A DNA stretch of 63,991 nucleotides, the filler included, from Porpidia crustulata (taxonomy: Eukaryota), in assembly GCA_964255105.1 (NCBI GenBank). It is 4 parts of 4 records of this genome, joined end to end, with 100 filler letters (N's around TTAATTAATTAA, not from the genome) between each part and the next. Parts side by side here need not be neighbours in the genome. Positions count along the whole stretch, not along the records: positions 1 to 16,454 come from CAXUWE010000256.1; 3 more parts are not named here. One strand, given 5' to 3'. How positions within the stretch are numbered: the first letter of the stretch is position 1; the number at the start of each line of letters is the position of its first letter. Shown piece after piece: positions 1-48,896 of the stretch. The position numbers and the translations under genes were made by a program. Under the pieces are notes generated by a model. It was given only the letters and a program-made list of their open reading frames with translations, searched no databases and was not told where the DNA came from.

Positions 1-1224
1 CTTTTCCCCCCCTCCCCGAGCAAACGATTACGCACTTGCCATGACGCTGTAATCTCTATCCACAAACGCCACAACATTCCCTCGCTCGTATCATCGCCCC
101 GCCCTTAGTGCGCAAGATAAATCTATTTCCTTTTTTGGTTCATTGTAACCTGACGAAATCTTACGGGCTTGAAAAGGTAAGGAAGAGGTTGGGAGGGATA
201 AAACAATAAGGTCGTCGACACATCTCTCATTGTGACAGCAAAAACCACTGCGGTAATTTTTCGGCCAGATATTCAACATTCATACTTCAACAAAAACGTT
301 TGCAAAATTCGAAGAGAGGGCTGAGAGATGATTACGAAAAACATCATTTCATCCTGTTCATTGACGACGATTATTGTGTACATTTATCTAACGTGTAGGT
401 AGGTACATGATAGTTGGATTTTAGGTGAATCGTGGTTTGGAATGACCAATGTTTATATAAAAAGGTCGTTGTCGTCGTACAACTTCGCTTCTGCATTCAT
501 GCGTAAAAGGTAAACACGTTCCGAAAATTGAAAGTAGCGAGATAGTATCTATATAATGTTTGATTTTACCACATTCGGAAGTTTCGCAGATATATATATA
601 TACATGAATTGTTAATTTTTGAGAAGTATTGGTTTTGGTGCGAAATGGGGGTGTGTTGGGGACTTGGATAGAAGCATTGAATGTAATCGGGCTGTTTATC
701 GAAAGGACAATAATTTGCATGGGTTTTTCATAGTTCACGGTATATAGACTTGAGGCTTTTGGTCTTCATGTTTAAGTAAACTCAAGATGGTAGCGCTTTA
801 ATTAAGAGCAGACCCTCCCACCCCCCAAAAAAGTTTCATCGGGTTTTTTCTTCCTTGGAGATATTTGGGGGTTAGATGTCTAGCTGATTCGCGGTTATTA
901 GACAGGTACTAGTTCCTGATAGGCTGATAGGCAGCAAAGTAGGAATGCACAGGGCCGGTTTAGGATGCTCCGGCGGCTGGAGGAGGGGTGGATCAGAGAT
1001 GTTTCGACGCGGATGTTGGCTTGTGAAAGAGCGGTGGTATAGCTTGGTTATATAGGTTAGGTGGTACAACAGTCCGCGCAAAGCATCGACGACGACAATA
1101 TCGCAAGGCAGCTAGCTAGCCTGTACTGGATCGATGAAATTTCGATTCATTTTTGATCGTTTGCATGATGTTGCCATGGTTCGATGCCAGTCTTGCCGAG
1201 GTGTTCTTCTTTTCGCCTAATATT

Positions 1225-3588
1225 CTACAGTGCCAATCCATAGTCACAGACAGTTTCAACGCAAGTCGAAGTCGAAACCGAGATGGATTTAGAGATTGAT
1301 TGCACCGGTGGAGCGATGCCATCCAAGATAGCATTACGAGCCACCTCGGCAAATGCAATTTCATCGTGGAAATCCGTGAAATGCACGCTTATGCTTTTGT
1401 ATTTACATCGGTTGAGTCTCAAGAATTTATCACTGATGTAGGATTTGGCTGCTTCGAAATCGTTTCCGCCACAATAATCCGGGAAATAATCTTCCAGAGG
1501 CCTCGTTCCCAGTTTGTCCTTCAGCAGGTCGACTTTGTGAAAGAACAGAACCATTCTTGCATTGACAAAACAGTCGGCAGCGCAAACAGATTCAAACAGC
1601 GTGAGTTGTTCCTCCATTCGATTTGCAGTCTCGTCCTCGACAAGGACCCGGTCATAAGCTGCTAGATCGACCATGAAAATAATGGTAGTCACACCCTCTG
1701 AGACCCGAATCCACTTCTTCCGCTCCGATCGCACTCCACCCGGGTCGCAGACCGAGTACGAGATTCCGTTCGTTGAGAAGGATGTTTCTGTAATTCCAGT
1801 GGTTTTGACACGAGTTTGTAGTATATCTTGATCGGTGGGTAAATAAGTCGCGCTGTTCAACCGTCGTCTAGCATCGAAAAAGCTTTGCAAAATCATTTAG
1901 CCGATGCCCATTAAAGACATGAGAAAAGTCATTGACCATCGGCTAGGTACTGGACTTGGTTTCCAGTGCGTGACTAAGGATAAATTTTCCGTACTTTTAT
2001 AAATCGAGGGAGACTTACTATCGTGCACAATCAGGCAATTGGTACTCTTGATATCTTTGGAAGCATGCCACAACCCCAGTATCTTGGCACAGAATTCTTA
2101 CAGAGTCTGCAATTAGTGGAGGAAGGTAATTAGGTGCCGAAGGATAGGGTTGCATGAAAATAACCTGGGCGGCCTCTTCGCTTTGCGAGCCATCTAAAGG
2201 CATCTCCATCTTTTCCATTGCCTCTAGAACTAGACGCATGCTTTCAGTCAAGTTGGCGAGAATGATATCTTTACAGGACCTTCGTTCTGACATCGTGTAA
2301 GGTCCATCCTGCAATAATTTCAACGACTTCAGAAGAGTGGACTTGCCACTCTCTGATATTCCCAACAGTAAAGCTTTGGGCTTTGAACTTTGCCAAGTCG
2401 CAGATTCGTCGAAATCGCCCTTGAAACCGCGCTGCACACAACAAACGTTGATCTTCCGGTTTAACATATGAGGTATATTGATGAGTCCACGACATATTTT
2501 GCTTTGCGTGCGGTTATAGGTATCTTCAAAAGTTCCAACCTTTACCTCGGGTAACGTGCACAGATTCGTTCCGAGCTTTGCGAGAGGGGTTGGAGCTAAA
2601 GTTATAGACCTCTGTCTGATTGCAAGCTGGGTATGATACGACGTAAGCCCGGAAATGACGCCCTGAGGTTGACCATTGACGGGATCCAAGGTGTCGGTTG
2701 CAAATCCATTATACGGAGGCGGAAGTTCCCTCGACTGTTTCTCGCCCACCTGCGGATTCGCGTCGCACACCTCAATAATGCTATGAGTCATCGCATTGTC
2801 AAAGAGTGCCATATCCTTGGTCAAGCGATGCCCGTGATCACGTTGTTGCATACATTTACTGGCGATCGCTCGCTTCATGTGCGATTTCGTGGCCTCTCTG
2901 TAGGCCCTGGAATTGAAAACCTCGCAGTCAAACGCAAAATCGGTATCAAATAGCTCACAATTGTCTACCAAAGTGGATCTTGGTGTGTAAGTTGAGTCGA
3001 CATCCCTGAGCCAAAGTAGAGACGAGGTATCATCTAAATTCTTCTGGAACAGATGGCGGTTTTCTTCACTTTGTAGCACATTCCTTTGCTCAAACAAAGA
3101 TCGACTAGAAATGCATTAGTGAGAGTAGGAGGGAATGGATGAGAATCTAACCATTGTAAAGCCGTAAGAAGGAGATTTAGAGCACTGATCTGATTGTCAA
3201 GCTGGTTCAGATACTCTTGCATGTCCTTCTCGCCCCATAGTAGTTGGCCTTTTCCCAAGGTATCGAGTGACGTGGTCGAGCTTCTCTTTAGACTATTTAA
3301 ACGCTCATTCAGCAGAAGAATTAACAATTCAGAGCCATCAAGAGAGGTCGTTAGATCCAACACAAGTTGTTCATGTTGGGTTACGTTTACAAGACTCGTA
3401 TTGATCCAAGCAGATATCTGATTTAAAGCAGCTTTGAGGGTAGAAAGCTGTCCGATGAGCAGGCTCACCGATAGATTTGCCTTTTTGTATCGTCCTTGCA
3501 GATCAAGTAAAGATTGTAAGCTTCCGGAAATAACCCCAACGATGGTGACAATTGAACCTGCAACACCAACCACCGAGACAGGATCCAT
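1225..3588 (-). CDS. HeLo-like/SesA N-terminal domain fused to a divergent group I G-protein alpha domain (~726 aa, 3 exons: 3588-3152, 3104-2019, 1882-1225)
   Basis: N-term MDPVSVVGVAGSIVTIV...LWGEKDMQEYLNQLDNQISALNLLL is typical of the fungal STAND N-terminal domain. C-term has G boxes GISESGKST, RVKTTGI, DPGGVRSERKKW, FFHKVD. GT-AG introns 3151-3105 and 2018-1883 join the three ORFs in frame (2181 nt). Confidence 0.85.
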
Positions 3589-4585
3589 CTCTTCAAATTC
3601 CTAGATAACGGTTGTACAAAAAATGTCCAGGGGCAAAGGTGTAAGCTCCATAATATGAAGCGCCTTCTGGCGCAAGGCTGTAGCCTTCTCGAATGTATTC
3701 AGGCCTCCCGCTTCAATGAAAGCCTTGCTGCGCCTTCTCCCCTCTTCCGCCAAGATTGATCTCCTCCTCTTGATTGCCTGTCGAGATTTATCACAAGAGC
3801 CAATTGATCGTAGTCTTGCCCTGCTCCCGATACCTTAAGCCATAGAATGAACGACATCTGTATCGTCGCGCCTTTGTCTTCCCAAACTCTTACCAGTTGG
3901 GCAGTCGATGTGCGACCAGGATTATCGGGCACCACACCTAGATAGGTAATCACTTTACCTATATTAGCTACTCTGATGAATCTGGGCTTACCAATATAGG
4001 TATAATCTCAGGGTTAGGGCAAGCCTGTACAGGTATGGTGCCCCATAATCCTGGTGGCACACCGACTGCCAGCTGAAGGGATACTGCCGTTATTTTGTTA
4101 GGCCTCCGCGGGAAACAATAGGGAGGAGCAGGCTTTAACGTACTTGACATGGAGAAATCTCGCGACATCAGGAAAAGTCGGAATCGACTTAGGTGACGAA
4201 TGCCGTGGAGGTAGAAATGTTAGAGTTGTGCAGATTAATACAAACGTCAAAGAAGCGTCAAGACAGTGCTACGAGTCAGATTACATTTTCGACCATTGAC
4301 TCTCAGCTTACAGGCGAACAGATCAAGACGGTAGAATCATATTCTAGTCGTCACTTTCGTAGAGCAATACGCCGTTGCTGATTAATGTACAAATCAAAGC
4401 TGTGGCTCTTCCTTGAGCAAACCCCGTAGTAATCAACCGGATCCATTTCCCCTATGCCATAAAAAACCTGCAGACGGAAACCAAAGTACTAGCCACAATT
4501 ATCTCCAAAGCATACTACCATATCCACCAAGGTGATCAAGTATCGATGCTATAGAGATAACTGTAACGAGCAATCACAGCTGCAT

Positions 4586-5229
4586 CTAAGAACGTTCGCC
4601 ACGGAGACGGCGGGCAAGCTGGATGTCCTTGGACTCTGTTTCGGTAGATTAGCGGAGTCGACGTCATAGACGCAATAGGTGCTTACGGATGGTTACACGC
4701 TTGGCATGAATGGCGCAAAGATTAGTGTCTTCGAAAAGAGAAACGAGATACGCTTCAACGGACTCCTGGAGAGCGCCGATGGCGGACGACTGAAAGCGCA
4801 AATCGGATTTGAAGTCTTGCGCAATTTCACGTACGAGACGCTGGAAAGGGAGTTTGCGAATGAGGAGCTCGGTAGATTTCTGGTAGCGACGAATCTCACG
4901 GAGAGCGACAGTTCCTGTCAAACACGTCAATAATTTATTATTTGCATAGGGTAATGTAAGATTAAACGTACCAGGCTTATATCGGTGGGGCTTCTTGACA
5001 CCACCCGTAGACGGCGCAGCTTTACGCGCGGCCTTGGATGCGAGCTGCTTTCGCGGAGCTTTGCCTCCAGTAGATTTACCTGGTGATTAATATTAGCGAT
5101 AATGTTCGGGAAGATGTGTCGTGATAATTGGAGTGAAGGTGGTGGCAAGGTGAAACGACGGTAATGTGCAAGATTGCGACAGTGCTAGATACTGGATGAC
5201 TTACGGGCTGTCTGCTTGGTACGAGCCAT
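4586..5229 (-). CDS. HHT1: Histone H3 (4 exons: 5229-5205, 5079-4972, 4914-4687, 4635-4586)
   Basis: Spliced 411 nt gives [28 protein letters not shown]...[30 protein letters not shown]...GERS, 136 aa. Confidence 0.99.
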
Positions 5230-6028: not shown

Positions 6029-6530
6029 ATGACTGGACGTAAGTCATCCATACCCCACCTCATCCACTGCCTTAAGCTTTGTATGCTTTGAACATCACAC
6101 TAACATGTCTTTCTTACAGGTGGAAAAGGTGGCAAGGGTCTAGGCAAGGGTGGAGCCAAGCGTCACCGAAAGATTCTTCGTGACAACATCCAAGGCATAA
6201 CTAAGCCTGCTATCCGTCGTCTTGCGCGTCGTGGTGGTGTCAAGCGTATCTCAGCCAGTATGTGCTATCTTCTATCAGGATCTCTGCAACCGTTCTCTAA
6301 CGCGTTCCTTTAGTGATCTACGAAGAGACTCGTGGTGTTCTGAAAACCTTCCTTGAAGGTGTCATTCGTGATGCTGTCACTTACACCGAGCACGCCAAGC
6401 GCAAGACTGTCACCTCCCTCGACGTTGTCTATGCCCTCAAGAGACAAGGCCGTAAGTACTCTACCAAACCCATCTTTCCCATTAGATCACTAACAGTATC
6501 AAAGGTACTCTATACGGTTTCGGTGGCTAA
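6029..6530 (+). CDS. HHF1: Histone H4 (4 exons: 6029-6038, 6120-6257, 6314-6451, 6505-6530)
   Basis: Spliced 312 nt gives [59 protein letters not shown]...TLYGFGG, 103 aa. Confidence 0.99.
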
Positions 6531-7998
6531 ACGTATTCATGTCAACTACTTCTTACGACTTCTCTTTTGCTCGCCACCACTACTCATAAATACTCGAAGC
6601 ATTGGTGGGCTAGTGGTTGACGGAATGACTCGATGGGATATCGACATGGGACCAGTTTACGGTGTTACTATTGCTTTGTATCATAGGGTACCGGGGAGTC
6701 TGAGGTTAGCTTGGAATGATACCAGATAATTCCATCTTGATCCATATTTTACGTGTCATGCTAGTGACGCGTGTGACTCATTGCTGGTAGCGCTTGTTTG
6801 ATATGCCTTTTGGGGGGCCGGGTGGGGGATCTCTGCTCCTTGATCCCCGACTACGACTATCATACCCAACTGTCCACATGCTCTTCCAGGTTTCAACGTC
6901 TGGGATTACTGCGCCGGAAACTTGCATAGCAGCTGCGCGTCCCTTCCACCCAAACAACACAGGCATCACTCCGACGAATATCAAAATCATACGTAGCTTC
7001 CTCTTGCTTCCTCGTACAACCATGCCCAGTAAGGGTAGACTCGCGCATCGAAGAACTAACATTCAACGATGATAACAAACCTAGGCAACTACGCAATTGA
7101 TCAGGACAGAACTTGCAGGCTCTCATTCTAATCTTTAAATATCGCTTTTTTGATGCTTCAGACCTGAACTTACTCAAAGATCATATGCGCATAATACAGT
7201 CAACAACGACAAGTCAGAAATCTTTCGGAATAACGTAAAAATTGTGTTAAGTACCTGCGTGATGCTTCTTGAGTTTTACTAAGTTTGAGCTTGATGCCAA
7301 TGAAAAGTGTGCGCTACGAACCGTTTTCAGAAAGCGATTTTACTCCGTACTATCGAAGCAGTCGCTCTGCCTTTTGCAAAGCTGTAGATATGTTTATGAC
7401 AAGAATTGTTAATTAGATTGAAATCTTGATACAGATCAACCGACATATTCTAAAACCTGTGCGAATTTGGAGAACTCTAATCTATCTTTACTGACTACAA
7501 CTATTTCCCTTTGCTCGATATGGACTGCCGTATACAACCTATATATATAAAAGCGATGTTCAAAATTTACGAGCAAGCAACCTTAACAGGGGTGTGCAAA
7601 GCGTGGCGCCTGATTCCTGTTTTAGACTTGCTTTGCATAGGTATGCACTTCAACCGTCTTATCATTGCTCAATCTCCCTCAATCTCCCCAGGGCCGGTCA
7701 TATTGGATTGTTACTCATCAGCGCCAGTACATAACAAGTCATTGGCCGAGAGCTCATGTAGCATAGGTAACCTTGGCAGACAACGAGGCTGTCATGAGTT
7801 TGCTTCGCCTGGCGGGCATATCCCAAGGCTTCTGGTCAAATGAAGGAGATAGGCAAGCTCTTACATGTTTTGGTGCAGTCCTCAAATGCTCTCCATTTCG
7901 ACATCTGGAACTGTCGGACGCGCAGATCTCAGCATGGTAAAGCAGTGAAGTTTCTGTGCCTATGGTCATGACTGGCAACTCTATCAGCATTCAGTCTG

Positions 7999-10085
7999 AT
8001 GGCGGATCCCCTCAGCATCGCCGCCGGCGTTACTGGTATAGTGACAGCCGCTGCCAAGATATCCTCTCTCCTTGTCGATTTCATGGTGTCCACTAAACGC
8101 GCCCCAGAGCAAGCCCGAGTTATCTACGTCGAAATCAGCGACATTAACGGAATTATGTCGCAACTTCAGTCATTTTTGCTGGGCATAAAATCCTTGAAAA
8201 GTTCGCGAGCATCTCTGCTCCAAGTGGATCAGGTGATCACAACGATTACTAGCTGTGTCCACACGTTGTCAGAGCTAGAGAAGCTTCTTGATGATCTGAA
8301 GTTGGAGGGTATGGGCGTGCTCGAGTGCATAGCTTGGGCGAGGAAGGAAGCATCGATCGTAAAGGTTATCCAAAGGCTGCAGAATCACAAAGCATCGCTC
8401 TCATTGATGCTCAGTATTCTGAACGGGTACGGCGTTTCTCTGGATCATGAAAATTGGTGTCAATAGGCTGACAAGTCAAGTAACACAATGGTAGAAGCTG
8501 TGGATGCTGTAAATCAACTTTCCAAAGTTGTGAAGGACATGGAGGCCAAGGTAGAGGCACTAGAGCGACGTCAAGTCCGGTCCATATATGGCTCGATTTT
8601 GACAAATTCGCAATCCAATACATCATCGATACATACCGTGATACGCCCTTCTTCGCAGTGCCCAGGATCTGAAGTTGAAGCTCTACCATACGACTACATT
8701 AGTAGCTCTACATTCGACGAGGATTTGAAGAAGTCATGGGCGTACATGAGGATCGAAGCTTTCCGAAGATCGACTACCTCATTCTCGACTCTAGAGGCCG
8801 GCTCCACAGCGTGGTCCTGTCTCTCGGGCCTCAGTCTGTCACAAGTTTCAAGTATCGCCGTTATCGATCTTCCAATCACGATGGATGACGTATACTCCCC
8901 ACGGCATTTTGTCCAAGTGCCATTGGCTAGTCGAAAAGAGCCAGCCAGGCCTTTAAATTTGGATTTTGAAGTTTTGCAGCATGAAGCAAGACCTGCAATC
9001 CCCTGTGAAGATCCGCTGAAGGCGATGCCATGCCAAAAATGCATCAAGGTATAGAGGCTTTGTTCATACGCTTTTGCCCATTTCCTTCAATACATTTGAC
9101 TAACAAAACCGCTTTCCAGCTTTCAGGGCAAGGCCCATCTTTCGAGATAGGTACATAAGCATTCCACTACTTTCTTGATATCCAACAATCTAACACAAGT
9201 ACAGCCGACAGGCGTTGGCACAATGACTGCTTCAGATGCAAAACATGCGACCTCGCCATGAACTCGAATACGAAGGTGCTCATTCTCAGCGATGGATCTC
9301 TTCTCTGCGACGAGTGCTCCTGCCTTACCAGCGTACTTGGATATCAAGACTTTGGCACTGCCATTGGCGGTGAGCATTGGATTTGCGCATCCTGTCTTCA
9401 GTGCCGGTTTTGCGGAGCGGGTAGTAAACCTTTGACTTCGAAGAATCCACGCTACAAAGAATGGTTCGATACTCATGTGAGCAATGACAGATGCAAGGCA
9501 TGTTTAGCGGGATTAGTCTCGAATTCCAGAATTTGTGACTCTGCCGGAGACAGTCCACTCCTACAGCCTCTCCATAAACACAGCGACTTTGTCGATATCT
9601 CTGAACGCAAAAAAGACCCTGCTGAACCAAGGTGCAGAAATATCCTACGCGGTAGTGCCCGTAACCTACCGCCTCTTGAAGGTTTGCGAAAAGGTGATCC
9701 AGTGCACTTACAATACGACCACAGCCTTCAGTTCGGCAACTATTACTACCTTCCCAACCCCTCGAGCTCTTATCCTGGAAGAAGTAATGCTATTATCAAT
9801 AACGGTGCTGGTTCTTCGAGGGAAGTCGTCATCACAGACACGGAATCTATGAGTTTGAGTAAGCCCACTTTGTATTGCACAAACGCGTTCATGTGTACCT
9901 ACTGCGACCTCAAGCCCCAAGGGTTCCGCAGCCAACTTGAGCTCAGCCGCCACAATCAACGTATCCACAACAGCCTGCTTGACCTCTCCCATCTACCGGA
10001 TCTGTCTAAACGCTTTGCAGAGAAGAACCTCCGCTTCTCCGAATCGCTCGCGGTCGAGAATTGGGAGCAACATTCTTCGCGCTGA
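7999..10085 (+). CDS. HeLo-like/SesA N-terminal domain protein with LIM domain(s) and C-terminal C2H2 finger (~635 aa; exons 7999-8426, 8481-9048, 9120-9150, 9205-10085)
   Basis: N-term MADPLSIAAGVTGIVTAAAKISSLL...RLQNHKASLSLMLSIL. Splicing through a 31-nt micro-exon reconstitutes the LIM CQKC-x16-WHNDCFRCKTC-x17-CDEC. C2H2 CTYC...HNQRIH. 1908 nt in frame. Confidence 0.8.
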
Positions 10086-45807: not shown

Positions 45808-46607
45808 TAACGCGAGTTGGCTGGAGATGTCTCGGTGGGTAAAGGGGTGCACATGGAGTTTTTCCTGATGATAACGGCGCTTGGGGATTGGAGGGTCGGT
45901 GTTCAAGTCTTGGATGAGGTAGCTTTTTGTAGATTGGCTATGAGCGCAATTACATATTTCGCTTTCACGCAAGGGGAGTGCCCTTTACCAAACAGACACG
46001 GCAATTATTCTGATGATACGGCTGCGACCGCTGGCCGAGGGTTTGTCCCGGGAGAACAGCGATTAGTCCCCAGATCTAAGAAGTGCCGCCTGTTGGAACA
46101 GAGTTGTTGCGAGACTCACCCAAAACAGGTGAAACTGAAGTTAGATAGTCCTGGTGGCGGGAGACCGGGACAGCCCCTCATCGCATGACCGCTGTCCTCA
46201 CCTCCTAGACACATATCCTCATCCCCTTTACAGTCCACGAATCCTTTTTCAGTCGCATCTTGGACGCTGGTTGTCGCCTTACTTAGTCGGATTGTTACGT
46301 GGAGAATGGCTTTCGAAAAGGTTGGACGCTGGCCTCAGGCACGTAAGGAGCGAATTTGTGTCATGTCCGAATGGCTGCTTCAGACGGATTTGTCCTTTCC
46401 GTACAGACTTTATCTCCAATATGATCAAAAGAGCATTGGTTCCACTCGATGAGAGCTAGGATCTAGCAAGCTGAGCATGCCTTCACGCACCATTCTGATG
46501 ATTCGTTTGTTCACAGATGGGTTCACTTAGTCGTTGTACATGTTTACCCTGGTGTTTCATTACCGCCGTCTTCCGTCGGTCAAAGTCCTCGAGCGTGCTT
46601 TCTAGCC

Positions 46608-48896
46608 ATGCAAAATGTCACCTTGACGAATCGATATTTTCCACAGCCAGACGGCACATGGAACTATGCCATTTGGGACAAAGATCTCTGTGCCAAGTGC
46701 AATGAGATTGACTGGCAGGAGCTCTTTGGTGGATCCTGGCATGCCATTGATGTCTCTGGTTGGGGTCATGGTGCGATTTCTCCCAGATCTTTTGCTCATA
46801 TCAGAGATCACCAGAAGTGCGCCTTCTGCAGACTTACCTATCATGCCATGGTGAACGCTCAGACGTGGCACGACGTTGACGATCGCGCCGTGTGGCTTGA
46901 TCACAATGTTTACGCTTGGGTTTTCGATGGCCCGCCCCCAGCGTCCCCAGATAGATGGCGCGCTCGGGTGGAGAAGAGGATTTGGCTTCGTGTGCAACGT
47001 GGCACTCAGGGCATCGAGGTTACCGAGAAGTGGCCTACTTTTGATGAGAAGAAGGAAGTGATGATGACTCATGCCGCTTGCATTCAGCTGCTTGCTCCAG
47101 ATCCTGAATGTACCACCAGGGACAGTGATCTTGCTCATCTCATGAAATTGCATTCATCTGATAGTGAGAAAAATCTTTTCAACGATCCTAACCGTTATAA
47201 TACTGAAGAATTGAAGATCCTCGATCATGTATATGCTTCTGCATGTCAAGGGCGGCGGATGCCAGAAGAGCAAATAGACTATGATATGCTCAAACACTGG
47301 ATCTGGACATGTAGTATGTTCCATGAGCAGCAGTGCTCACCTTCAACATCGCTCCGCTCGGGTTATAAGACTTATCCTTCGAGGGTGATCGATGTTCGTC
47401 GGGGCTGCATTATCTTCACTCCCCCGAAAGCTGCGTATGTTTGCCTAAGCTACGTGTGGGGTTCCAAACCGCAGCTGAAACTCATCGACGAGACTATTGA
47501 ATCACTAACCCAGGAAGGTGGACTTTTCGACGAGGATATTGGTTTAGCCAAAACCATCCAGGACGCCATCTTTGTATGCGGTAAGCTTGAGCAAGATTAC
47601 CTTTGGGTTGACAGTATTTGTATCAAGCAGGATGACGCGAGCATCCGGCAGCCTGAGATTGAGAACATGGACCTAATCTATGGGGGGGCATCGTTGACGA
47701 TCATCGCTGCCTCTGGTCAGAACGCAGATGCTGGCTTGCCCTGCGCACGCCAGAATTCAAGAAAGGCCGCCCAACACATAGAAACCATTCGTGGTCGTCA
47801 GCTTATAGCTTCAACGCCCTCTCCAACTTATGATGCCAACATCTCGCTCTGGGAACGACGAGCATGGACCTTGCAGGAACGTGGGCTCTCGGGCCGTCGC
47901 CTGATTTTTACGGAGTCGCAGGTTTATTTACAGTGTAGAGCATCCTATTTCTATGAAGATGCAGTGTGCGAGATACCGGGCAAGATATCACTCACAACCT
48001 TTCCGAAAACAGCTTCCGCTTGGAAGGGAGCAATCCAACATGACTTCGATCGGAGTGATGGCTTTCCCCCGTACAAAGATATAGTCCGCAACATTACTAA
48101 GCGGATGCTCAGCTACGATAGCGATTCGCTGAACGCAGGTATTGGAATACTCAGGGTCGATCAGGAACGCCGGGCGGCGGACGGAGAGAATCCCAACCTT
48201 ACTTTTGGACTACCAATAGCAACTTTCTCCGAAGCATTATGCTGGATGTCAATGACTGGCTCGCCGGGTCGCCGACGAAGTGAGTTCCCCAGCTGGAGTT
48301 GGGCTGGTTGGGATACGGCTGCTTCATATGACATGCTGCAGTTCAGCATCATACACGACAATGGACATTACATGGCTAATGAGCATGACGAAGCCACAAT
48401 GGCCGCGGCTGCCTTTGAGCCCCGCGCTGCAGGAAAGAGTGAACTCGACAGCCCGACCCTTAAATGGTGGACCACCTCAGCGGTACTACGTGTGGATCGC
48501 GTCTCCCAAGATCCGGACTATCCGGATAAGTATGCCATGTGGTCCCTTTACAATCCTGGCCTTTGCCTAGGCCATATTCTGTTGGCCAAGGACGCGCGAG
48601 CTTCCCGACCGGATGAAATGGAGTTTATCGTGATCGCTATCGAATATCATGAGAACGGATGGCAGACCCACAACAGCGATGATCGATCCAAATGGACGCG
48701 TCCAGAACAATACTCGTATGGAGTCAAGTTGCTGTGTATCGAATGGATCGGGGATGTTGCTTATAGAGTGCAGATGTCATATCGTTCTCAAGTCGCACTC
48801 GCTAGTATTGAAGCGACAAAACCTTCGGAAGGGGCGCAAAGTATTGCGAATTGGAAAGCAGCCAGACCGGTCAAAAAATTTATTGTTCTTGGATAG
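46608..48896 (+). CDS. Heterokaryon incompatibility (HET) domain protein, TOL-like, intronless
   Basis: RVIDV, YVCLSYVWG, TIQDAI, YLWVDSICIKQDD, MDLIYGGASLTIIAA, WERRAWTLQER, FPSWSWAGW. N-terminal CAKC/CAFC. Confidence 0.93.
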   Translation: MQNVTLTNRYFPQPDGTWNYAIWDKDLCAKCNEIDWQELFGGSWHAIDVSGWGHGAISPRSFAHIRDHQKCAFCRLTYHAMVNAQTWHDVDDRAVWLDHNVYAWVFDGPPPASPDRWRARVEKRIWLRVQRGTQGIEVTEKWPTFDEKKEVMMTHAACIQLLAPDPECTTRDSDLAHLMKLHSSDSEKNLFNDPNRYNTEELKILDHVYASACQGRRMPEEQIDYDMLKHWIWTCSMFHEQQCSPSTSLRSGYKTYPSRVIDVRRGCIIFTPPKAAYVCLSYVWGSKPQLKLIDETIESLTQEGGLFDEDIGLAKTIQDAIFVCGKLEQDYLWVDSICIKQDDASIRQPEIENMDLIYGGASLTIIAASGQNADAGLPCARQNSRKAAQHIETIRGRQLIASTPSPTYDANISLWERRAWTLQERGLSGRRLIFTESQVYLQCRASYFYEDAVCEIPGKISLTTFPKTASAWKGAIQHDFDRSDGFPPYKDIVRNITKRMLSYDSDSLNAGIGILRVDQERRAADGENPNLTFGLPIATFSEALCWMSMTGSPGRRRSEFPSWSWAGWDTAASYDMLQFSIIHDNGHYMANEHDEATMAAAAFEPRAAGKSELDSPTLKWWTTSAVLRVDRVSQDPDYPDKYAMWSLYNPGLCLGHILLAKDARASRPDEMEFIVIAIEYHENGWQTHNSDDRSKWTRPEQYSYGVKLLCIEWIGDVAYRVQMSYRSQVALASIEATKPSEGAQSIANWKAARPVKKFIVLG

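Follow-up and report, generated by a model that had tools for sequence, protein, structure and literature searches.

A Porpidia crustulata G-alpha domain lacking the catalytic glutamine is joined to a putative HeLo-like head and belongs to a patchily distributed family of Pezizomycotina

Among the described G-protein alpha subunits (G-alpha) of fungi, the nearest counterpart of the protein discussed here is GaoC (AFLA_124830; KAB8243555), the fourth G-alpha of Aspergillus oryzae and A. flavus, which was reportedly first described by Lafon and colleagues in 2006. As far as the accessible text of the sources goes, its catalytic Gln is replaced by Ser, the protein is predicted to be catalytically inactive and the gene had not been deleted (PMC5869405, 2018), while a 2025 review gives its length as 690 amino acids (aa) and lists its function as unknown (PMC13267034). 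Older reviews, in the passages available, confine GaoC to A. oryzae and deny the existence of a conserved fourth class (PMC3100592, PMC2566311). Another atypical ‘fourth’ fungal G-alpha, Gpa4 of Ustilago maydis, is stated in the available text to have evolved dysfunctionally (PMC5869405); this basidiomycete protein is reported to stand apart from GaoC in phylogeny (PMC3100592) and is likened to the present one by description only. In plants, the extra-large G proteins (XLGs) have been proposed to work independently of nucleotide, and for XLG2 the accessible part of the report describes a much reduced nucleotide binding with retained interactions with regulators of G-protein signalling (RGS) and G-beta-gamma (bioRxiv 10.1101/795088). 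The literature on fungal NOD-like receptors (NLRs; NOD, nucleotide-binding oligomerisation domain), again in its accessible portion, classes the domain PF17111 as ‘Helo_like_N’ or HeLo-like (PMC9815663). The present analysis concerns a gene on the minus strand (3588..1225) of a 63,991-nucleotide (nt) stretch of Porpidia crustulata DNA (assembly GCA_964255105.1; hereafter the window), the predicted product of which joins a G-alpha domain without catalytic Gln to an N-terminal bundle of putative HeLo-like type.

The preliminary description of this DNA had marked 1225-2380 as a G-alpha domain. That range does hold the domain, but the reading frame of the P-loop stays open far upstream of it and two GT..AG introns complete the frame, so that the predicted gene extends to the ATG at 3588 and comprises three exons with 2181 nt of coding sequence, i.e. 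726 codons up to the stop at 1227-1225. Exon 1 (3152..3588, minus; ATG 3588-3586) encodes residues 1-145 and two bases of codon 146, forming the N-terminal helical bundle. Intron 1 (3105..3151, minus; 47 nt, GTTAGA...CTAG) lies in phase 2 and splits a Cys codon (TG/T). Exon 2 (2019..3104, minus) carries the motif region behind the bundle, a linker of variable sequence, and the P-loop and helical domain that make up the first half of G-alpha; it is followed by intron 2 (1883..2018, minus; 136 nt, GTAAGT...AAAG, phase 2), which splits a Tyr codon (TA/C). Exon 3 (1225..1882, minus) supplies the Ras-like half, with switch I, switch II, G4, G5, a diverged alpha-5 and the C-terminal tail. Thus, the protein falls into four regions, namely the N-terminal helical domain (residues 1 to ~145), the conserved motif region, the variable linker and the G-alpha domain (~385 to the end). 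The motif region, recognised in family alignments, reads DDTSSLLWLRD ... FAFDCEVFNSRAY, with FAFDCEVFNSRAY at 2938..2900 (minus).

Splicing of intron 2 gives the junction ...DCARYFFDA..., which is collinear with canonical G-alpha and with annotated relatives, and splicing of intron 1 gives an LQ-C-RS junction that is kept across the annotated full-length relatives. Read-through of intron 1 was rejected, its 47 nt not being divisible by three, and a start inside exon 2 was likewise rejected, since the annotated relatives and the conserved LQ-C-RS junction favour the three-exon model. The true N-terminus is therefore MDPVS, without an MGxxxS lipidation motif; the absence of an N-terminal myristoylation Gly had been correctly noted before, although at a point some 375 residues downstream of the real start. 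As regards read support, this DNA occurs in a single public sequencing run, whose independently assembled Logan contig agrees letter for letter with positions 1100-3700 (depth 9.3, no variant letters). The run is probably the source of the window, and hence the contig is no independent confirmation of the letters, but it still argues against a slip of the assembler at the codon of interest.

The identity of the C-terminal domain is clear. PF00503 matches the exon 3 product at 209.3 bits (E 1.1e-61, profile positions 142-327) and the corresponding part of exon 2 at 78.3 bits (E 7.5e-22, positions 19-141), both far above the curated cut-off of 48.8 bits and together covering the Ras-like and helical parts; the nearest solved chains to the exon 3 product are mammalian G(o)/G(i) alpha (E 3.6e-47). 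Minus-strand reading bears out the motifs given in the preliminary description. The G1 box or P-loop is GISESGKST (2336..2362), in which GKST is retained and the second Gly of canonical GAGES is replaced by Ser. Switch I reads RVKTTGI (1792..1812), with both the Arg finger and the Mg-binding Thr present. In G3/switch II, DPGGVRSERKKW (1711..1746), the codon GTG at 1734-1732 places Val where the catalytic Gln is expected, while G4 is FHKVD (1528..1542; canonical NKxD) and G5 is FTDFHD (1363..1380; canonical FTCATD). The protein thus keeps the PF00503 hallmarks of the P-loop (GxxxxGKS/T) and of the switch I Arg and Thr, and lacks the Gln of DxxGQ and the usual guanine boxes NKxD and TCAT. Canonical group I proteins begin MGCGMS and end in a CxLx tail; neither this MGCxxS start nor this tail is found here. 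At the C-terminal end (1225-1300, minus), a Ser-rich stretch of ~20 aa foreign to canonical proteins precedes the terminal CDYGLAL, which looks like a remnant of the group I C-G-L tail; the ends of the Xylographa and Aspergillus relatives differ from it.

Relatives built in this way were found in lichen fungi and in the genera Xylaria, Sclerotinia, Stromatinia, Cudoniella, Talaromyces and Aspergillus. Of 2514 candidates obtained with the exon 2 product, five were long proteins of 656-737 aa; they came from Xylographa, Calogaya and one JGI record, and all have an MDPxS head and PF00503. The profile built from these five matched 71 proteins at E<=1e-5 and added full-length members from Xylographa, Calogaya, Lasallia pustulata and Xylaria. 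When the N-terminal 230 aa of one family member (P0001) served as the query, 33 proteins were retrieved, their hosts including Sclerotinia nivalis, Stromatinia cepivora, Cudoniella acicularis, A. nomiae, A. pseudonomiae and A. karnatakaensis. PF00503 was present in 28 of the 33, and at least two of the other five (P0213, P0219) are short gene models that still contain a P-loop; hence, this head accompanies a G-alpha domain almost without exception. Family lengths range from 612 to 737 aa, and the intact architecture spans four classes of Pezizomycotina (Lecanoromycetes, Eurotiomycetes, Leotiomycetes and Sordariomycetes); the family is conserved but patchily distributed.

The exon 3 product matched 10,366 proteins at E<=0.001, the best being P0006 (60% identity; 209 aa in length), which is the equivalent exon product of a close relative. 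Among the 150 matches listed, the switch II motif, where found, has Gln except in P0006, P0104, P0119 and P0154. In the closest relatives this exon product forms an intact 209-aa frame on dozens of contigs. Within the cluster around P0006 (P0232-P0241), the 209-aa product begins with the read-through residues MILQS, as does the open frame of the present gene; Ala occupies the Gln site, and the Arg finger is Cys in most and Arg in others, i.e. it is polymorphic among close relatives. Two other long gene models contain G-alpha: P0207 of Paramyrothecium foliicola (1184 aa), perhaps an artificial merger of genes, in which a short-chain dehydrogenase accompanies the family head, and P0216 of Mycena sanguinolenta (875 aa), a kinase-G-alpha fusion with Glu at the Gln site.

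Across the family, the catalytic Gln is missing throughout. In a table of 25 distinct family rows and 10 near-copies of P0006, aligned to one canonical group I protein, the site is occupied by Val (six rows), Ala (four), Thr (four), Met (two), Leu (two) and once each by Ser, Cys, Arg and Asp, with Gln in 0 of 22 (P0164, P0208 and P0222 have no residue there and are excluded). The Val is therefore a family trait, and the picture of a stand-alone G-alpha with one striking substitution has to be given up for that of a C-terminal domain within a 726-aa protein whose relatives all share the loss. Similarly, the switch I Arg, noted earlier as kept, is present in this protein but lost in 8 of 22 well-aligned rows, the closest relatives among them. 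The second Gly of GAGES, equivalent to Gly12 of Ras, at which replacement slows hydrolysis, is kept by just 2 of 21 rows. For G4, the form TKxD is seen in 16 rows, as against HKxD in four (this protein, P0006 and two from Aspergillus) and NKxD in one, and the G5 box is degenerate throughout. On the other hand, GK[ST][ST] is retained in 20 rows and the Mg-binding Thr and DxxG in most, and the switch II sequence RSERKKWIH is almost unchanged in the majority.

The resemblance to group I G-alpha (FadA/GNA-1 type) that had been read from the helical domain is upheld by phylogeny. A quick tree (46 rows, 323 columns, LG+G4; 15 family rows) and a careful tree with ultrafast bootstrap and Shimodaira-Hasegawa-like approximate likelihood ratio test (SH-aLRT; 16 family rows including Aspergillus) were built, P0195 and P0207, the two longest family rows, being removed from the latter after a long-branch warning. 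In both, the family is a single clade (quick tree, SH-aLRT 100; careful tree, with P0225 and P0226 among its rows, 100/100) that attaches beside Pezizomycotina group I G-alpha in these unrooted trees. The nearest rows by path are of group I type, as is the Pezizomycotina protein with the top identity (49% over 287 columns). The group I rows of Pezizomycotina do not themselves resolve into one clade (53/0), the family standing as a separate clade beside them. This placement is read as a real origin, since long-branch attraction would be expected to pull the family away from the short group I branches. By its position in the trees, the G-alpha part is probably descended from fungal group I.

For the N-terminal head, the evidence points to a weak relationship with PF17111 (PigL_N, formerly Helo_like_N), and thus to a bundle of putative HeLo-like type. 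When the members were scanned one at a time, PF17111 matched 16 of 24 at E<=0.05, the best at 6e-07. AlphaFold2 (AF2) run on a 24-row alignment predicts four long helices and one short for the exon 1 product (3-33, 40-68, 70-105, 110-118 and 120-144). The first of these is hydrophobic and rich in small residues (MDPVSVVGVAGSIVTIVGVISG); no charged residue occurs at its positions 4-22, and no other 19-aa window of the protein is as hydrophobic (Kyte-Doolittle 2.11). An uncharged hydrophobic first helix is typical of HeLo and HeLo-like domains. In the ESM Atlas, the N-terminal 230 aa of P0001 lie closest to clusters labelled ‘Fungal N-terminal domain’, PigL_N and SesA (score 0.95, 200/256 features shared). 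The bona fide PF17111 domain of a gene further along in the window (described below) aligns collinearly with the family profile in hhalign over 133 columns at E 0.0031, with a probability of only 10%, and with the present N-domain in BLASTP at E 0.16. An equivalent MDPxS head followed by PF00503 is found in the relatives.

Structural searches with the head were less informative. Foldseek against the PDB returned nothing for the N-domain model at E<=0.001, the best match being the soluble domain of IncA (E 4.6e-03), whereas a wide fold search with VIA-align produced many helical bundles at Z 8-13.7. The list includes MLKL (Z 10.7), the coiled-coil domain of Rx (10.3), MLA13 (10.2) and NRG1.1 (9.7), and unrelated bundles reach 13.7; the search is therefore not discriminating, as none of these four exceeds the unrelated rows. 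The full-length AF2 model of P0001 is confident for the G-alpha fold (predicted local distance difference test, pLDDT, 73-95 over residues 330-650), while its N-domain and linker are poorly predicted. The linker equivalent lies below 50, and the linker behind the conserved motif region is probably disordered. As only the G-alpha domain is confident, no inter-domain geometry can be read from this model. Prediction of a complex between the G-alpha domain of P0001 (325-658) and its own N-terminal 230 aa (score 0.15, mark 0.34) counts neither way.

Set against the known systems, the protein shares with GaoC a length within the range of ~650-740 aa around the 690 aa reported and a replaced catalytic Gln, and it falls into one clade (100/100) with long proteins of Aspergillus section Flavi. 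One of these, P0225 of A. nomiae, has 689 aa, Ser at the Gln site, HKVD at G4 and an MDPLS head; GaoC, known here by its description, is probably a family member, because P0225 belongs to the same section of the genus, has nearly the same length (689 versus 690 aa) and carries the same Gln-to-Ser exchange. The Aspergillus members are thus probably GaoC. The present protein differs from them in having Val instead of Ser and in being only distantly similar. The family as a whole departs from GaoC as the accessible text describes it (confined to A. flavus/oryzae and with ‘only’ a G_alpha domain; PMC5869405, PMC3100592), since it extends over four classes and possesses a putative HeLo-like head.

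The likeness to group I proteins (FadA, GNA-1, MagB) extends beyond the 49% identity to helical-domain motifs and a switch II that are almost identical. In contrast to them, the protein has no MGCxxS start, no alpha-N helix and no catalytic Gln, its G1, G4 and G5 boxes are altered, its C-terminal tail has diverged and it bears a 375-aa N-terminal extension. Plant XLG1-3 follow the same general plan, in which a large N-terminal region other than G-alpha precedes a G-alpha-like domain without some of the residues needed to bind and hydrolyse nucleotide. Their N-terminal region, however, is Cys-rich with a nuclear localisation signal, whereas the PF17111-like bundle is not homologous to it and the fusion arose independently in another kingdom; the resemblance is an analogy of layout and not shared membership. 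With HeLo-like (HELL) and PF17111 proteins, such as HELLP and the N-termini of fungal NLRs, the protein shares an N-terminal bundle that opens with a hydrophobic helix. The partners listed for such domains in the accessible text are C-terminal amyloid motifs or NACHT/NB-ARC with repeats (PMC9815663), while the partner here is G-alpha; neither G-alpha nor GTPase occurs in that source (0 times). Across the open-access literature, no paper was found that links a HeLo-like domain with G-alpha, none that contains both ‘HeLo-like’ and ‘heterotrimeric G’, and none that describes so broad a distribution of the family.

From the gene model, domain content, family, residue pattern and phylogenetic position we infer, with a probability of roughly 0.8, a hydrolysis-dead module derived from G-alpha and tethered to a HeLo-like domain, rather than a receptor-cycled G protein. 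The G-alpha part presumably cannot be a receptor-started switch timed by hydrolysis, because the catalytic Gln is absent, the Arg finger is not under selection and the P-loop Gly is altered. A receptor-cycled role is further doubted for want of a lipid anchor motif and of a conserved alpha-N helix for G-beta-gamma, and because the alpha-5 and tail have diverged. At the same time, the P-loop, Mg site and switch II are retained, which suggests that an interaction that depends on nucleotide, or is at least mediated by switch II, is still selected. The module would no longer time a signal by hydrolysis and would act in a nucleotide-binding or nucleotide-independent manner, offering the surface of switch II and the helical domain either to group I pathway partners or to the N-terminal domain of the same protein. 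Membrane association, oligomerisation or an output activity would come from the HeLo-like head, which would thus substitute for lipid anchors; of these, membrane association or oligomerisation is probable. As to nucleotide state, a GTP-loaded, locked form may be given somewhat less than an even chance, and a scaffold that binds nucleotide weakly or not at all, like the one described for XLG2 of plants, a chance of about one in three, with other states making up the rest. The earlier proposal of a locked-on or pseudo-GTPase thus keeps its first half as a possibility, but the degenerate G5 box, with bulky residues in place of Ala, makes weak or absent nucleotide binding about as likely.

Several points weigh against this interpretation. 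For the head, the exon 1 product itself matches PF17111 at 14.9 bits only (E 0.018), beneath the curated cut-off of 27.2 bits, the mean pLDDT of its model is 69.5, and its structural matches are of the generic helical-bundle kind. With respect to descent, the labels of groups I and II were taken from source names and N-terminal signatures, and the tree holds no named group III reference. The end branches of the family (0.04-2.1 changes per column, as compared to 0.01-0.13 in Pezizomycotina group I) show a much faster evolution. The link between GaoC and P0225 rests on species group, length and one residue, and on the side of expression the gene is a prediction at the level of sequence. Furthermore, the switch regions of P0004, P0169, P0195, P0221 and P0231 are eroded, and such badly degraded switches in several members would fit relaxed constraint on the whole nucleotide pocket better than a conserved GTP-locked state.

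The alternative that survives best, though it is still rather unlikely, is a pseudo-GTPase scaffold that works independently of nucleotide, binds little or no guanine nucleotide and serves purely as a docking face for G-beta-gamma, RGS proteins or further partners, in the manner described for XLG2 of plants. The family-wide degeneration of G5, where Phe (in this protein) or Ile (in Xylographa) stands in place of the Ala of canonical TCAT, the altered G4 and the erosion of switches I and II in several members would all suit such a role, and the XLG2 precedent, in the accessible text, is one of lowered binding with RGS and G-beta-gamma contacts kept (bioRxiv 10.1101/795088). Against this stands the retention of GK[ST][ST] in 20 rows, of the Mg-binding Thr and DxxG in most, and of the Lys and Asp of G4 in 21, a pattern of P-loop, Mg site and G4 that is hard to explain without nucleotide binding. 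Moreover, TKxD, the commonest G4 of the family, is a working G4 in Rho-family GTPases.

Improbable, on present evidence, is a second alternative in which the head is a membrane-attacking or cell-death domain under the control of a G-alpha-derived switch. The protein would then be a NOD-less, NLR-like sense-and-execute protein in which the G-alpha switch replaces NACHT/NB-ARC, or an integrated decoy guarding the group I/FadA-type pathway, having arisen by duplication of a group I G-alpha in parallel to the plant XLGs. The uncharged hydrophobic first helix, together with a patchy distribution and fast evolution as seen in fungal non-self recognition genes, is consistent with this proposal, as is the relationship of the N-domain to PF17111, HeLo-like in the accessible NLR literature (PMC9815663). 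That the fold search listed the bundles of MLKL, Rx, MLA13 and NRG1, at Z 9.7-10.7, has also been counted in its favour, but these values are within the range of unrelated bundles in the same list, whose top row stands at 13.7. Any toxicity or membrane activity of the head is putative, PF17111 is joined in other proteins to many domains without an immune role, as in the LIM-domain gene close by, and the protein contains no repeat or sensor domain.

The preliminary description had inferred a natural locked-on or pseudo-GTPase that could bait RGS proteins, effectors or toxins that modify G proteins; read as a stand-alone G-alpha locked ‘on’ by the Gln-to-Val exchange, this proposal now seems quite improbable. 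Gln is indeed absent, switch II and the Arg finger are retained in this protein, and Gln-to-Leu mutants of G-alpha are GTPase-deficient. The protein, however, is not stand-alone, and since nine different residues are tolerated at the site and 8 of 22 rows lack the Arg finger, a precise ‘locked-on’ geometry is not what is conserved. Both residues that such toxins usually modify, namely the catalytic Gln and a Cys at position -4 of the C-terminal end, are missing, the tail being CDYGLAL, which makes the role of toxin bait less likely. Finally, it is very improbable that the gene is a decaying pseudogene or that the codon was wrongly assembled. The family does evolve fast and motifs are eroded in some relatives, but an open frame of 726 codons runs through the three exons, whose splice sites are canonical. 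In addition, another assembly of the reads, though probably of one and the same sample, gives identical letters, and the architecture is preserved across four Pezizomycotina classes, with the 209-aa frame intact on dozens of contigs.

In the vicinity of the G-alpha-like gene, a second predicted gene at 7999-10085 (plus strand) has a bona fide N-terminal PF17111/PigL_N domain (E 1.6e-06, 28.1 bits, above the cut-off) and has a LIM domain (E 1.8e-07) in a later open frame; it lies 4.4 kb away in divergent orientation. Between both PF17111-type genes, the frames at 4664-5086 (minus) and 6301-6729 (plus) resemble, from their translations, a divergent histone H3/H4 pair. Further along the window, an 809-aa open frame at 46467-48896 (plus) contains a HET (heterokaryon incompatibility) domain (E 1.2e-30). 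The other large frames in 13362-63989 look like housekeeping genes, namely an AAA ATPase, an IBR/Ariadne E3 ligase, Gpi1, an mRNA capping enzyme, SNF5, an SNF2 helicase and eIF3c.

Reviews of fungal G proteins, in their accessible parts, recognise three G-alpha groups and have held GaoC to be an oddity of A. oryzae/flavus, probably inactive and never studied. The present analysis suggests a conserved fourth class across four classes of Pezizomycotina, derived from group I, always without catalytic Gln and always fused to a putative HeLo-like head. The lineage itself was already known; the analysis adds to it a complete gene model, the union with a putative HeLo-like head, the probable descent from group I and the distribution over four classes. 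The family offers a fungal parallel to the plant extra-large G proteins, and raises the question of what role a hydrolysis-dead G-alpha plays when joined to a type of domain otherwise linked to regulated cell death. Should the HeLo-like head prove active, the family would connect G-protein signalling with the cell-death machinery of fungi, and should that head be under the control of the G-alpha switch, it would represent a NOD-less class of fungal cell-death or immune executor.

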